The translations under genes were made by a program, and so were the position numbers. The notes beneath the pieces were generated by a model, which worked only from the letters and a program-made list of their open reading frames with translations, did no database searches and was not told the DNA's origin. From NCBI GenBank assembly GCA_040005235.1, contig JBDTZG010000003.1:64001-128000 (forward strand): 64,000 bases of DNA, read 5' to 3'. This document shows positions 30,187 to 35,386 of the stretch, piece after piece; position 1 is the first letter of the stretch; every line of letters begins with the position of its first letter. The stretch comes from Acidobacteriota bacterium (GTDB taxonomy: Bacteria; Acidobacteriota; Thermoanaerobaculia; Multivoradales; UBA5704).

Positions 30187-30468
30187 GTCGCCTCCCTCCC
30201 GTTCCGTCGTCGCTGCATTTCAGAGATAGAGTAGAGCCCTTCGTGTTGGGACGTACAGCGAGGGGCGATCTTATGAGAACGTTGCCGTCGGAATTCGCCG
30301 ATCTGTTGTCCCGGAAGGGACGCGACTGGGAATGAATGAAACGGTTTAACACTTCCTTCAGGTTTCAGCATCCTTCTGGGTCGTGCCTCCTCGAAAGTCG
30401 GCGACGACGCCGAATTCGAAGGAGGCGCCAACCGGAGCCCTGAAGGCTCCTCAACTCAGGAGTTGTCC

Positions 30469-31212
30469 ATGAAGAAGTTTGTCGTTCGCCTTTCCGTCGG
30501 TTTCCTGTTGGCCGCCTTCGTCCACTCTCCCGGTTTCGCCTTCGAGGGGACCGGGTCGATCGCGAGCGAGGAGGCGTTCCTCTCCTCGCTGGGCGATCGC
30601 GCGATCTTCGTCGCGCCGGGCGTCTACGAAGTCAAGCTGAATTCCAAAGAGACGATGCGCGTCGCCTTCGGCGATGCGGGAAGGCAATTCGATCGCGCTC
30701 GCTTCGAGGGGGAGCTTGCCAAAGTGCAGGCCGATCTCGCGCAGACGGCCCACCCGTCCCGCGAGCTGCTGCGGAAGGCGCATCGGCTGGAGGATCTGAT
30801 CGCCGGCCTTCGGACTCCCCAAACCCGGGCCGCGGTGACGGGCTGGACCTGCCCGGGGACCACGATTCAATACACCTACTCCTTGGACGGCTATCTCACT
30901 AGCGGCGTCGTCACCGCCAAAGCGAAGATCGGGCTCGGCGTCGATTTCGGCCCGCCTCCCCCCTCCTACCCGAACCGCTACGCAGACGCTTACGCCACGG
31001 CCTACCGGTCACCCTCCTGCTCTGAGAACTCCGTCAGCGCAAGCGACTCCCTGACCAACGGCGCTCTGGGCTTCGCCACCGCCACCGCCTCGGCCTCCTG
31101 CTCGGGCACCTGCATCGCCTGGGAGACGTTCAGCGAAGTGACGCAAGCCGGTTGCACCGACGGCTACCGCTCGCTGACCCGCTTTGGCGGCAGCTTGGTG
31201 AACTGCCCCTGA
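30469..31212 (+). CDS. Secreted hypothetical protein with Cys-containing beta-rich C-terminal domain
   Basis: AGGAG RBS, signal peptide MKKFVVRLSVGFLLAAFVHSPGFA, central helical hairpin, and six C-terminal Cys. Confidence 0.8.
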   Translation: MKKFVVRLSVGFLLAAFVHSPGFAFEGTGSIASEEAFLSSLGDRAIFVAPGVYEVKLNSKETMRVAFGDAGRQFDRARFEGELAKVQADLAQTAHPSRELLRKAHRLEDLIAGLRTPQTRAAVTGWTCPGTTIQYTYSLDGYLTSGVVTAKAKIGLGVDFGPPPPSYPNRYADAYATAYRSPSCSENSVSASDSLTNGALGFATATASASCSGTCIAWETFSEVTQAGCTDGYRSLTRFGGSLVNCP

Positions 31213-31225
31213 TCTGAGATCACGG

Positions 31226-31260
31226 GAGACGGCGGGCCGGCCCCGCCTGCCGTCTCTTTC
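31226..31260 (+). terminator. Probable intrinsic terminator
   Basis: GAGACGGCGGGC-7 nt loop-GCCTGCCGTCTC stem followed by TTTCT, 13 nt after the stop codon. The T-tract is short. Confidence 0.55.
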
Positions 31261-31305
31261 TCCGCCGCCAGTCAGAAAAGGTGCGATTTCTGGGATAATA
31301 AGCCC

Positions 31306-31605
31306 ATGGACCCACAAACCGCTGGCTTGGTCTCCCTTGGAATCCTTGCGCTCGTCGCGCTCGCCTACCTAGCCGTGTTCCGCAAAAAAGGCGAGGTGAA
31401 GATCGATGGGCCAGGCGGCACCGGCCTCTCGTTCAAAGGAAGCAACGAAGCCGACCGGCTCCCGGCGGGCGAAACGATGGCCGAGCGCATTCGAGCCAAG
31501 GGCTCGGTCGAAGTCGTAGGGAGCACGGGCGGAAACGTCAGCGCTCGAGAACTTGATGCAGGCGAGAACGTTCGCGTGGAGAATCAGCCCGGCCCAAAAG
31601 CTTGA
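31306..31605 (+). CDS. 99-aa single-TM protein with two C-terminal amyloid-like pseudo-repeats
   Basis: TM AGLVSLGILALVALAYLAVF followed by RKK; repeats GETMAERIRAKGSVEVV and GNVSARELDAGENVRVE. An extended -10-like TGgGATAAT ends 6 nt before the ATG (possibly leaderless). Confidence 0.75.
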   Translation: MDPQTAGLVSLGILALVALAYLAVFRKKGEVKIDGPGGTGLSFKGSNEADRLPAGETMAERIRAKGSVEVVGSTGGNVSARELDAGENVRVENQPGPKA

Positions 31606-33602
31606 CCCCCGGCGCTCCGAGCGTGACGGGGGAGATCTCGAACGTACACGCGGGAAAGAACGTGGTTCTCGCGGGGACCTACATTGAGGCCGCCGGAACC
31701 CTCACCTCCCGCTCCCCTCTCCACCAGCTCCCCGCCCCACCCGCCGATTTCGTTGGCCGCACGGAAGATCTCACGGCGCTTCGCGCGTCGGTAAGGAAAG
31801 GCGGCGCCACAATCTACGGCCTTCAGGGTCAAGGTGGCGTGGGAAAGACCGCGCTGGCTCTGGTGCTCGCCCGCGAGATGTCGGCGGATTTCCCCGACGC
31901 GCAGATCTTTCTCGATCTTCAGGGGGTGAGCGAACGGCCGCTCTCGTCTGCCGACGCGATGGCGCATGTGGTGCGCTCATTCTATCCCGACGTGAAGCTC
32001 CCCGAAGGGACGCAGCTCGCGGCGGTCTATCGGGACGTTCTCACGGGCAAGCGTGCGCTTCTATTGATGGACAACGCCTCGGGCCACGATCAGGTGGCGC
32101 CATTGGTGCCGCCCACGGAATGCGCACTGCTGGTCACCTCGCGGCAGAAGTTCACGCTCCCCGGACTCGCGGTGCGGGATCTGGAGCTATTGCCTGAGAA
32201 GGACGCTCGGGAACTACTGCTCGCGATCGCGCCACAGATCGGGCACCGGGCGGGCGAGATCGCGCGGCTGTGCGGGTGTCTGCCGTTCGCGTTGAGGATC
32301 GCCGCAGGAACTCTCATGGAGCGGCCGGATCTTTCGGTTGAAGCGTTTGAAAAGCGCCTGGGTAGGGAAAAAGAACGGGCGGCGATCGGAGAGAAGGTGC
32401 TCGGGCTGACCTATTCCCTCCTTCCTGATGCTTTTCAAGAGCGCTACCGCCAACTCTCCGTCTTCGCCGGAGATTTCGACGCCCCAGCGGCGGGCGCTGT
32501 GTGGGAGCTGGGCGAGGACGAGACGGACGAAACGCTCGGCGCGTTCGTGCGCGGGAGCTTGCTCGAAGGGAAGGACGGACGCTACAAGCTCCACGACCTC
32601 GCGCAGGGGTTCGCGGCGTCGCGGCTGGCGGAGGAGGAGAAGGCGCAGGGCGAGCTGCGGCATGCCGAGCACTACTGCGGCGTTCTCAACGAAGCGAACC
32701 GCCATTACGAGCAAGGCAATGAGCACATCCTCGTGGGGCTCGCGTTGTTCGATCGCGAACGGCACCAGATCACTGCCGGCCAGGCGTGGGCGGCCAACAA
32801 CCTCCAAACAAAGGAAGAAGCAGCGCGTCTCGCGAGCTGGTACCCGAACGCGGGCTTTCACTTTCTCTTGATGCGACTACTCCCAGGGGAATACATCGAA
32901 TGGCTCGAAATGGGTCAGCAAGGGGCACGGCGAGCGGAGGACCGTAAACTGGAGGGAAGTCATCTTGGCAATCTTGGCGTCGCCTATAGGAACCTTAGCG
33001 AAAACCGGCGAGCGATCGAGCATTATTCGCAAGCCCTCGCTATCTTTCGCGAAATCGGCGATCGACGAGGTGAAGGCGGCTCCTTAGGGAACCTCGGCAA
33101 TGCCTACTATTTGCTCGGAGAAACCCGAGCTGCGATCGAGTTCTTCGAGCAGCACCTCGTCATTGCCCGAGAGATCGAAGATCGGCGCGGCGAGGGAAAC
33201 GCCCTCGGAAACCTTGGCAATGCCTTTGCCGACCTCGGAGAAACCCGGCGCGCAATCGAGTTCTACGAGCAGCAACTCGCCATCGCCAATGAGTTGGGTG
33301 ATCGGCGAGGCGAGGGGAATGCCCTAGGCAACTTAGGCCTTGCCTACGCTGCCATGGGTGAAACCCAGCGGGCGATCAATCACTACAAGCAGTACCTCGC
33401 GATCACGCGCGAGATTGGCGACCGGCGCGGCGAGGGGAACGCGTCGTGGAACCTGGGACTTGCGTACGAAGAGCAGGGAGAGCTCGCTAGGGCGGTCGAG
33501 CTGATGCAAGTCTGCGTCGATTTCGAACGGGAGATCGGGCACGTAGATGCCGAGAAGCACTCGGCGTACGTACTGGCGATTCGCGCGGGGCTGGCGGGGT
33601 GA
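31602..33602 (+). CDS. NB-ARC (STAND) NTPase with C-terminal TPR array (bacterial NLR-like)
   Basis: PADFVGR, Walker A GQGGVGKT, Walker B LLLMDN, LLVTSR, CGCLPFAL, YKLHDL (MHD-like), and 40-aa repeats GDRRGEGNALGNLG. The TTG start overlaps the upstream TGA. Confidence 0.92.
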   Translation: MTPGAPSVTGEISNVHAGKNVVLAGTYIEAAGTLTSRSPLHQLPAPPADFVGRTEDLTALRASVRKGGATIYGLQGQGGVGKTALALVLAREMSADFPDAQIFLDLQGVSERPLSSADAMAHVVRSFYPDVKLPEGTQLAAVYRDVLTGKRALLLMDNASGHDQVAPLVPPTECALLVTSRQKFTLPGLAVRDLELLPEKDARELLLAIAPQIGHRAGEIARLCGCLPFALRIAAGTLMERPDLSVEAFEKRLGREKERAAIGEKVLGLTYSLLPDAFQERYRQLSVFAGDFDAPAAGAVWELGEDETDETLGAFVRGSLLEGKDGRYKLHDLAQGFAASRLAEEEKAQGELRHAEHYCGVLNEANRHYEQGNEHILVGLALFDRERHQITAGQAWAANNLQTKEEAARLASWYPNAGFHFLLMRLLPGEYIEWLEMGQQGARRAEDRKLEGSHLGNLGVAYRNLSENRRAIEHYSQALAIFREIGDRRGEGGSLGNLGNAYYLLGETRAAIEFFEQHLVIAREIEDRRGEGNALGNLGNAFADLGETRRAIEFYEQQLAIANELGDRRGEGNALGNLGLAYAAMGETQRAINHYKQYLAITREIGDRRGEGNASWNLGLAYEEQGELARAVELMQVCVDFEREIGHVDAEKHSAYVLAIRAGLAG

Positions 33603-33853: not shown

Positions 33854-35062
33854 GTGGAGGATCGTAAGGTGAGGGTACTCATCCCGACCCATATCGACGA
33901 CATTCACGCGACCGCCGTGGCACTCGCCCTGCGGCGGAAGGGGCACGAGGCGGTGCTGTGGCACGGCGCCGACATGCCGACGATTCAGGCGGGGTCGATC
34001 TCGCTCGGACCCGACGAGAACGAAGCCTGGGAGGTCTCCGGCGAAGACCTCGAACTGCTGCAGCCCAACCTCGACGTCGTCTGGTACCGGCGGCCGACGA
34101 TGCCGATGCTTCCCTCCGGGGACCTCCTCCATGCCGGCGACGCGAAGATCGCCCGCCGCGAGCTTGCCGGCTTCATCACCGGCCTTTGGCAGTTCGTGGC
34201 GCCAGAGGCGTTCTGGGTCAATCCGATTCCGAGCCGGCTGCGCGCGAATTCCAAGCCCGTCCAGCTGCTCGAAGCTAAGCGCGCGGGCCTCGCGATCCCG
34301 CCCACCCTCTGCTCAAACGATCCGCGGCGGATCCGCGAGTTTCTCGCCCGCTGGCCGGGCGAGACAGTGTTCAAGCCTTTCCATCCGACCCAATGGCGGA
34401 AGCACGAAGGCATCGCGATGCTGTTCACCAGCCCGGTCGGGTTCGACGACCTGCCGGACGACGAAGTTCTGCGGCTCTGCCCCGGCATCTTCCAGCGCGC
34501 GGTCCCCAAGGCGTGCGAGCTGCGGGTGACGATGATGGGCCATCACGCGATCACCGCCCGGCTGCTGTCCCAATCGGAAGAAGCGTCGCGCCAGGACTGG
34601 CGGGCGGCGTTCGGCAAGCTGCCGATGGAGCCGGGCGAGATCCCCGAGCCGGTCGCCGCCCGCTGCCGCGAGCTGATGCGCCGGCTGGGCATCGTTTTCG
34701 GCTGCATCGACCTGATCGTGACGCCCGAGGGCGAGCACGTGTTCCTAGAAATCAACGAGATGGGGCAGTTCCTCTGGATCGACGAGATGGGGCCGGAGAT
34801 GGCGACCCTCGATGCGTTCTGCGAATTCCTGATCCACCGCCGGAGCGATTTTGAGTACCGGCCGGGACCGGTCCGGGTCGCCTTCGAGGAGGTCAAAGAA
34901 GAGGCGTTGCAATGGACCGAGGAGGACAAAAAGAGGCATCAAAATCGGCCTGATGCGTCGTTGGTCGACGACGTGCCGGCGACGGAAGGGGCGGGAGCGC
35001 ACGCCGCGGGAGGGGCTTGCGATCACGACCATCCGCATACACACCCACATCCCGCGGCCTGA
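33854..35062 (+). CDS. ATP-grasp peptide ligase (MvdC/MvdD/RimK-like graspetide synthetase) with His-rich tail
   Basis: VVWYRRP, FWVNP...ANSKPVQL, IPPTLCSNDP, VFKP, IFQRAVPKACELRVT, DWR, FGCIDLIVTPEGEHVFLEINEMGQFLW; tail CDHDHPHTHPH. Confidence 0.9.
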   Translation: MEDRKVRVLIPTHIDDIHATAVALALRRKGHEAVLWHGADMPTIQAGSISLGPDENEAWEVSGEDLELLQPNLDVVWYRRPTMPMLPSGDLLHAGDAKIARRELAGFITGLWQFVAPEAFWVNPIPSRLRANSKPVQLLEAKRAGLAIPPTLCSNDPRRIREFLARWPGETVFKPFHPTQWRKHEGIAMLFTSPVGFDDLPDDEVLRLCPGIFQRAVPKACELRVTMMGHHAITARLLSQSEEASRQDWRAAFGKLPMEPGEIPEPVAARCRELMRRLGIVFGCIDLIVTPEGEHVFLEINEMGQFLWIDEMGPEMATLDAFCEFLIHRRSDFEYRPGPVRVAFEEVKEEALQWTEEDKKRHQNRPDASLVDDVPATEGAGAHAAGGACDHDHPHTHPHPAA

Positions 35063-35161
35063 GCCGTTGGCTTCGGGAGCCGGGTGCAGGCCGACTTTAA
35101 ACCGATCGCCCCAAAGGGCGGTCAAAACCACGCGAAGGATCGACGCGAGAGGAGAAGACCG

Positions 35162-35386
35162 ATGAAAAAGCTCGAGCGCAACAACCGAATCCTCGGACGG
35201 GGACTGGCCAAGGAGCTTTGCCCCACCGAGCTGTGCAACGTCACGGGCGGCGTGGACGACGCGGCCGGAACGCCCACCCGTTGCGTGATCATTGCGCACA
35301 CCCATTCGGCCACGATGCATGACGACTGCTACGTTGCGGCCACCGACACCGACGAGGCCGTTCCGGCCGAGGAAGCCGCTCTCTAA
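35162..35386 (+). CDS. 74-aa putative graspetide precursor peptide
   Basis: GAGGAG RBS; MKKLERNNRILGRGLAKELCPTELCNVTGG/VDDAAGTPTRCVIIAHTHSATMHDDCYVAATDTDEAVPAEEAAL*. Confidence 0.82.
   Translation: MKKLERNNRILGRGLAKELCPTELCNVTGGVDDAAGTPTRCVIIAHTHSATMHDDCYVAATDTDEAVPAEEAAL

Follow-up and report, generated by a model that had tools for sequence, protein, structure and literature searches.

Probable programmed -1 frameshifting between a small membrane protein and an NB-ARC/TPR protein in an Acidobacteriota genome

A 99-aa open reading frame (ORF) and an ORF for an NB-ARC/TPR protein resembling NOD-like receptors (NLRs) lie one behind the other in the window analysed here, a stretch of 64,000 nucleotides from an Acidobacteriota bacterium (Thermoanaerobaculia; Multivoradales; UBA5704; GenBank assembly GCA_040005235.1, contig JBDTZG010000003.1, positions 64,001 to 128,000 of the forward strand). 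The NLR ORF (666 aa, 31602-33602, + strand) has a TTG start and overlaps the small ORF by the bases TTGA (31602-31605). This layout agrees with a first-pass annotation made from the letters alone, and all three peptide strings that it cited are located in the translations. That annotation took the two ORFs for a signalling pair, in which an NLR without an effector domain of its own nucleates an amyloid fold in a separate small membrane protein. We favour a different reading, in which the two ORFs are probably one recoded unit, with programmed -1 frameshifting producing both the free peptide and a fusion of about 765 aa that carries a transmembrane (TM) helix in front of the NLR. Feature coordinates are collected in Table 1.

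The large protein was correctly recognised as an NB-ARC/TPR protein. Pfam TPR families match it with E values down to 2e-28, AAA_16 also matched, and NB-ARC falls just below its cut-off (E 1.2e-4, 21.9 bits vs 23.5). In the PDB, residues 276-618 of AfsR (8k60 and 8jke) match its residues 30-347 at E 8e-41. Its best NCBIfam match is partial and far below cut-off, to HaaT, a TPR protein of clusters for ribosomally synthesised and post-translationally modified peptides (RiPPs).

The small protein matched no Pfam, NCBIfam or PADLOC family. Its AlphaFold2 (AF2) model, built from a 48-row alignment, has a helix at residues 3-24, with a predicted local distance difference test (pLDDT) score above 90 over residues 1-20, followed by six short beta strands (block pLDDT 62-82) and no further helix. 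The strands of the repeat region, which comprises two pseudo-repeats (R1 and R2), lie at residues 57-60, 68-72, 78-81 and 89-93. By the positive-inside rule, the TM helix would be oriented N-out and C-in, because the N-terminal tip is acidic and R/K residues follow the helix. In 115 of 136 family proteins position 2 is acidic, which together with the N-terminal hydrophobic helix recalls the signature reported for the N-termini of Bell, HeLo, MLKL and RPW8 proteins (Dyrka 2020, bioRxiv 10.1101/2020.01.06.895854). Unlike Bell and HeLo domains, the model predicts a true TM helix and then beta strands, and a helical bundle of the Bell/HeLo type (about 100 aa) is absent from it. Foldseek found nothing in the PDB for this model at E<=0.001 (best E 2.8), with HET-s (2rnm) at rank 5 but not significant (E 5.3, probability 0.03). 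The best Z in VIA-align wide was 3.3, from rows that cover mainly the helix (residues 1-42) and barely the beta part.

A conserved cassette marks the junction of the two ORFs. All 16 full loci (13 in the source family, one on a metagenome contig and two in genomes of another class) have in common CCCAAAAG, five variable nucleotides, and then CCCC(CGG), a loop and (C)GGGG(G); the codons flanking the cassette vary between loci. In every full locus the small ORF reads P-K-A and either stops there or runs on via x-P-P-A to a stop, and in all loci this 0-frame stop lies 1 to 5 codons from the heptamer, within either the spacer or the loop of the hairpin. The NLR is in the -1 frame relative to the small ORF, open across the site, and reads P-K-S/R-x-x-P-G from the same bases. 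The first pair of the hairpin is 6 nt past the heptamer and is present in the minimum free energy structure of each of the 15 loci folded (50-nt stretches, dG -17.8 to -33.1, z -0.4 to -2.3). By eye, an upstream Shine-Dalgarno-like GGAG of the kind known from dnaX occurs in some loci only and was dropped as an element of the cassette. Transcriptional slippage was set aside, the A-run having only 4 bases. The spacing of 6 nt fits the 5-9 nt that usually separate heptamer and structure, and C_CCA_AAA is close to C_CCA_AAG, which is highly shift-prone in E. coli (Atkins 2016, PMC5009743).

The cassette also stands out against the codon usage of the source genome (6.2 Mb, 65.9% GC), in which the codon CCA accounts for 5.6% of Pro, AAA for 29% of Lys and GGG for 19% of Gly. 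At their cassette positions Pro CCA, Lys AAA and, in the 3' arm, Gly GGG are invariant in all loci. The source genome has four occurrences of the cassette pattern, all at its four small-ORF/NLR junctions, and the 92 genomes of the family have 13, every one (13/13) at a locus found independently by protein search; a reversed-pattern control gave 3 matches in the same 92 genomes. Because the rare codons are invariant and the pattern is confined to the junctions, the conservation of the cassette is at the nucleotide level. Two contig sets from one study, possibly of the source sample, carry the junction without an indel.

Most loci have no canonical start codon from which an NLR with its N-terminal motif (R3 in Table 1) could be made separately. 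The NLR frame of 14 loci was scanned for ATG, GTG and TTG, with positions counted in codons. A canonical start precedes the motif in three (the window at +3, L017 and L003 at +13), the first such start lies at +24 to +32, inside or past the motif, in seven, and four have none before +66. In two of these four (L002 and L023) the first start is at +66, and in the other two (L020 and L022) there is none in the range scanned, which extends from at least 17 codons upstream to +66. TTG codons occur 117 and 157 codons upstream in L002 and L017, and their use would overlap nearly the whole small ORF. The start-less stretch of the -1 frame is under coding constraint. Over codons +14 to +66, differences at codon positions 1/2/3 amount to 6/5/27, 8/7/26 and 8/9/28 among three clade-A loci and to 1/2/11 between L010 and L023. 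The more divergent L020, L021 and L022 have no codon-position bias, with amino-acid identity of 0.50-0.58. The earlier statement that the NLR has no N-terminal effector domain is true only under a two-gene annotation. The TTG start is not conserved.

The small TM protein and the NB-ARC/TPR gene form a conserved unit, with four small-ORF copies in the source genome, each with a same-strand NB-ARC/TPR gene behind it, in addition to the other full loci. In profile searches 12 of the family's 92 genomes, the source genome among them, had the small ORF. It was found in no other family among 401 genomes of the class, in one other genome among 401 of the phylum, and in 4 of 301 of that genome's class. 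A metagenome scan added one full locus (L017) and one remnant (L018), and two further scans of genome contigs gave no relative. Among 1.84 billion representative proteins there were 406 clusters (50% identity) at E<=1e-3 and 157 at E<=1e-10, mostly of about 100 aa; neighbour clusters in the Atlas are labelled mostly Verrucomicrobiota, Acidobacteriota and Pseudomonadota.

The residues P-K encoded by the heptamer are a hallmark of the short proteins. Among the stored family proteins of <=160 aa, 120 of 139 carry them within the last 14 residues. In the 48-row alignment only six columns reach at least 90% conservation, P97 and K98 among them, although the linker in front of these two varies in length. 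Twelve relatives fused in frame to a downstream domain have no P-K in the matching linker (P0017, P0045, P0047, P0051, P0067, P0075, P0087, P0092, P0099, P0102, P0104 and P0108), and the in-frame form without P-K was checked on DNA in L033 and L034. The remnant L018 has neither the P-K end nor an NLR downstream. Because P-K ends the short proteins and is absent from the in-frame fusions and from L018, it tracks the change of frame and not the protein.

From these observations we propose that ribosomes translating the small ORF meet C_CCA_AAA with the GC hairpin at the mRNA entrance. Some would terminate two codons further on, yielding the free 99-aa protein with its TM helix and two beta repeats. 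Others would slip back by one base and continue through P-K-S-L-T-P-G into the NLR, giving the fusion (98 residues of the small ORF, S, L and 665 residues) in the order TM helix, R1, R2, linker, R3, NB-ARC and TPR. The TM helix of the fusion would anchor the NB-ARC/TPR sensor to the membrane, and fusion and free copies of the module would be made in a set ratio. The seemingly effector-less NLR would have an N-terminal membrane module after all, because slipped ribosomes would join the small ORF to it.

Table 1. Features at the junction of the small ORF and the NB-ARC/TPR ORF, in window positions.
Feature	Position	Strand	Evidence
GC-rich hairpin followed by UUUCUCC, terminator-like, 3' of the stop of the upstream gene	31223..31264	+	fold: dG -30.2, z -2.27
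Small 0-frame ORF, 99 aa: TM helix and beta-rich tail, C-terminal P-K-A-stop	31306..31605	+	
N-terminal hydrophobic (TM) helix, residues 3-24; M-D before, F-R-K-K after	31312..31377	+	AF2
Beta pseudo-repeats of the small protein, R1 (residues 59-72) and R2 (residues 73-92)	31480..31581	+	sequence and AF2
Putative slippery heptamer C_CCA_AAA, X_XXY_YYZ, in phase with the small ORF	31593..31599	+	identical in 16/16 full loci
6-nt spacer GCTTGA, with 0-frame stop TGA (31603-31605) and non-conserved TTG (31602-31604)	31600..31605	+	
GC hairpin with CCCCCG...CGGGGG arms, 6 nt past the heptamer; candidate frameshift stimulator	31606..31632	+	
-1 frame, P-K-S-L-T-P-G... through NB-ARC and TPR to the stop	31593..33602	+	
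R3, third beta-repeat unit (NLR ORF residues 8-25), the NLR-side motif of the first-pass annotation	31623..31676	+	
NB-ARC NTPase domain, Pfam stretch residues 65-241, P-loop G76-T83	31794..32324	+	Pfam, AfsR match
TPR sensor repeats, 120-nt period, 73-76% matches unit to unit	33084..33551	+	

Several points weigh against frameshifting. The hairpin energies are not clearly better than those of shuffles of such GC-rich sequence (z -0.4 to -2.3), and the hairpin gives no covariation because its core arms are invariant. The heptamer ends in AAA, whereas AAG is best in E. coli, and the DNA-level evidence for the cassette is confined to one phylum. No RNA run was found that contains the locus. Possible starts for a separate NLR exist in the window (TTG at +3 and GTG at +10) and, by eye, before the motif in L030 and L032 (GTG at about +9, ATG at about +16), and near-cognate codons (CTG, ATC, ATT) may serve in the same way. 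One protein, P0139, joins the small ORF to NB-ARC in frame, reading P-K-S-L-N-P-G-G straight into the P-loop, which is the predicted trans-frame sequence; it may reflect an indel error and is given little weight, because its C-terminus looks out of frame. Finally, the functional half of the proposal, discussed below, is conjectural.

An unlikely alternative is that of the first-pass annotation, namely two separate proteins, in which the NLR starts from its own TTG and its motif templates an amyloid in the repeats of the small protein, clustering the TM helices by the logic of NWD2/HET-S or of bacterial amyloid signalling sequences (BASS). The two genes are adjacent, with the motif at the C-terminus of the effector and the N-terminus of the NLR, and the gene order, the 4-nt overlap and the double and single repeats fit the pairs of Dyrka 2020 and the Bab/Agp system; the window also offers the two starts given above. 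In profile-profile comparison (hhalign) the best local alignment is R2 against R3 over 18 columns (P 9.8e-4, probability 21.8%). The similarity of the pairs themselves was assessed in 15 loci by aligning the last 46 residues of the small protein, P-K removed, without gaps to the NLR-frame residues after P-K-S-x-x-P-G, with 300 shuffles. Two of the 15 pairs beat their shuffles, L009 strongly (score 41, p <1/300) and L030 (score 34, p about 0.013), and the window's own pair, on which the motif match had been judged by eye, is at chance level (score 21 vs shuffle mean 19.8, p about 0.33). Scores on the diagonal of the 15 x 15 matrix do not stand out from the rest. Because non-cognate combinations often score above cognate ones, there is no pair-specific co-variation. 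The likeness between the repeats, two in the small protein and one more at the N-terminus of the NLR, is seen at the profile level and in two individual pairs.

We take R3 for a diverged third copy of a repeat some 18 residues long (small-G-G ... hydrophobic-x-A-G-x-D-hydrophobic) and not for a co-evolving signalling motif. A unit like R3, A-G-G-D/N-I-T-I-Q-Q, also follows the head in the in-frame fusions, so that it belongs to the architecture whatever the downstream domain. Neither protein matched the Pfam amyloid-motif families (HET-s, NACHT_sigma, Ses_B, RHIM, sigma, PP) at E<=1. The AF2 model of the in-frame fusion P0092 does not place R3 on the beta unit and gives it pLDDT below 57. Such low confidence would suit a segment whose folding awaits assembly, a point in favour of templating between separate proteins; R1 and R2, by contrast, are predicted with moderate AF2 confidence as a folded beta unit in the monomer. 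A complex prediction for residues 26-99 of the small protein with the first 55 NLR-frame residues scored 0.11 against a mark of 0.32. The amyloid idea for this pair is weakly supported. Also against two separate proteins is that in 11 of the 14 loci no canonical start precedes the motif, because a separately made NLR would then lack the motif, and that the invariant heptamer and hairpin are left unexplained. The first-pass annotation had itself named a frameshift within one fused gene as a difficulty for its pair, and the conserved slippery site and hairpin point to just that, in programmed form.

Less likely still is translational coupling without a frameshift, in which ribosomes stop at the end of the small ORF and re-initiate on a nearby, often non-canonical codon, with the hairpin and the A-run tuning the coupling or the stability of the mRNA. 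The constant proximity of the stop to the heptamer is what coupling would lead one to expect, and some loci have starts nearby. Against it stand L020 and L022 with their long start-less stretch. Coupling also has no need of an in-phase X_XXY_YYZ or of invariant CCA and AAA, and P-K vanishes exactly where the parts are fused in frame. That a single gene has become a pseudogene through a recent frameshift mutation, or only looks broken because of an error in sequencing, is most improbable: one locus (L012, genome G031) has a separately broken small ORF, but the same frame arrangement recurs in 16 loci from 13 genomes and a metagenome contig, two runs contain no indel, and both frames are under purifying selection.

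Programmed frameshifting, the reading we prefer, has precedents in bacteria. Classical -1 frameshifts are those of E. coli dnaX (tau and gamma) and of the phage tail chaperone G/GT; in dnaX it is the short product that results from the shift. As at our junction, both have a 0-frame stop close by and an in-phase X_XXY_YYZ ending in a Lys codon with a stem-loop 5-9 nt downstream (rules in Atkins 2016). Both yield two products with a common N-terminus in a fixed ratio, as is proposed here. The heptamer here is C_CCA_AAA, not A_AAA_AAG or G_GGA_AAG, and the long product, unlike those of dnaX and G/GT, would be an NLR-like member of the signal transduction ATPases with numerous domains (STAND).

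Among STAND proteins, those of AfsR type likewise have an NB-ARC module followed by TPR repeats. AfsR has an N-terminal SARP DNA-binding domain, and its position is taken here by the TM-beta head, which would be supplied via the frameshift. The likeness to immune pairs is in the layout. In the BASS pairs of Bell and NB-ARC/TPR proteins (Dyrka 2020) and in the fungal NWD2/HET-S pair, a small membrane-targeting ORF also lies just upstream of the NLR and overlaps it slightly, by a few bases, and the two pseudo-repeats in the tail of the effector have their counterpart in one related unit at the head of the NLR; Bell proteins in addition have the N-terminal hydrophobic helix with an acidic position 2. 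Unlike in the BASS pairs, motif identity within pairs is low here and not pair-specific, and a conserved slippery site and hairpin join the ORFs, frameshifting not being mentioned in the accessible text of Dyrka 2020. In the BASS11 antiphage system Bab/Agp of E. coli (Ibarlosa 2024, bioRxiv 10.1101/2024.11.07.622273), Bab has a small helical domain of solved structure, and Agp does not belong to the NLRs. Bab/Agp was shown to form amyloid and to defend against phage, with no recoding described in the available portion of that report, whereas the present unit is known from sequence alone. Both frameshift cassettes and NLR-effector pairs are familiar, and the new element would be their link; no paper tying -1 frameshifting to bacterial NLR-effector pairs was found in a search that had most subscription journals outside its reach. 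Members of the small-protein family might already be among the BASS pairs in the supplement of Dyrka 2020.

What the two products would do together can be suggested by analogy with HET-S/NWD2, the Bell/BASS pairs and Bab/Agp. Binding of a ligand to the TPRs may cause oligomerisation of the NB-ARC domains and clustering of the fused heads. The clustered heads could then recruit free 99-aa copies through the common beta repeats and disturb the membrane, with an output of the abortive or cell-death type. The templating step itself, in which fused heads recruit free copies, is doubtful. Equally tentative, and wider, is the idea of a widespread family of TM-beta heads of about 100 aa (at least 406 clusters), joined by frameshifting to NLR-like and possibly other conflict-system genes, with the ratio of free to fused executioner hard-wired. 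In that case a beta-solenoid or amyloid-like membrane polymer nucleated by the sensor might act as a prion-like amplifier, with seed and substrate from one mRNA.

The relatives of the unit include several other arrangements. The TM-beta head is fused in frame to an 866-aa HD-CE/HATPase_c_3 protein (Hsp90- or MORC-like; P0075), to an unnamed helical domain (about 190 aa, AF2 pLDDT of 80-96; P0047, P0051, P0067, P0087, P0092, P0102, P0104 and P0108; L033 and L034) and to other tails. Some of the 19 short members without P-K end in K-K-A, K-K-V or K-K-G, which could reflect another A-rich slippery site. Two tandem head-plus-NLR units, L004 and L003 (G000:C5:84745-90954), lie about 3 kb apart with highly self-similar repeats of TPR_12 type, directly downstream of an ORF for a patatin-like phospholipase (GGGIKG motif). 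The head is fused in frame, without the cassette, to a TPR-only protein in L011/L026 (G006) and L013/L027 (G003), and to the post-NB-ARC half of an NLR in L014 (G002); L011, L013 and L014 resemble deletion derivatives in which head and sensor still share a reading frame. In L012/L025 (G031:C40) the small ORF is interrupted, meeting a stop behind residue 45 and continuing in another frame, and the heptamer, hairpin and NLR are intact.

Around the unit in the window, a hairpin and a short U-run set it apart from the upstream gene, as the first-pass annotation had described. The core of this hairpin is 12 bp at 31226-31256 (dG -30.2 kcal/mol, z -2.27). The hairpin is real and terminator-like; a terminator scan found none (0), the hairpin failing the rule of the scan because its T-run is too short. 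The upstream ORF (30463-31212, 249 aa) has a signal-peptide-like N-terminus and a Cys-rich tail and matched no Pfam family. Downstream, at 33854-35386, a 402-aa ORF with a weak match to MvdD-type pre-ATP-grasp proteins (E 0.019) precedes an ORF of 100 aa whose tail is rich in Cys and Thr, and the two may be a RiPP-like pair.

If the proposed recoding is correct, 'effector-less' bacterial NLRs of this kind and anonymous hypothetical proteins of 100 aa would be mis-split genes, and the sensor would bear a membrane head that is also made alone. The P-K at the end of a whole protein family would be accounted for. Two-gene predictions of amyloid signalling that are drawn from adjacency and short motifs should then first be checked for recoding signals. 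In immune-like STAND systems, recoding would join fusion and amyloid templating as a way of coupling sensor to effector.

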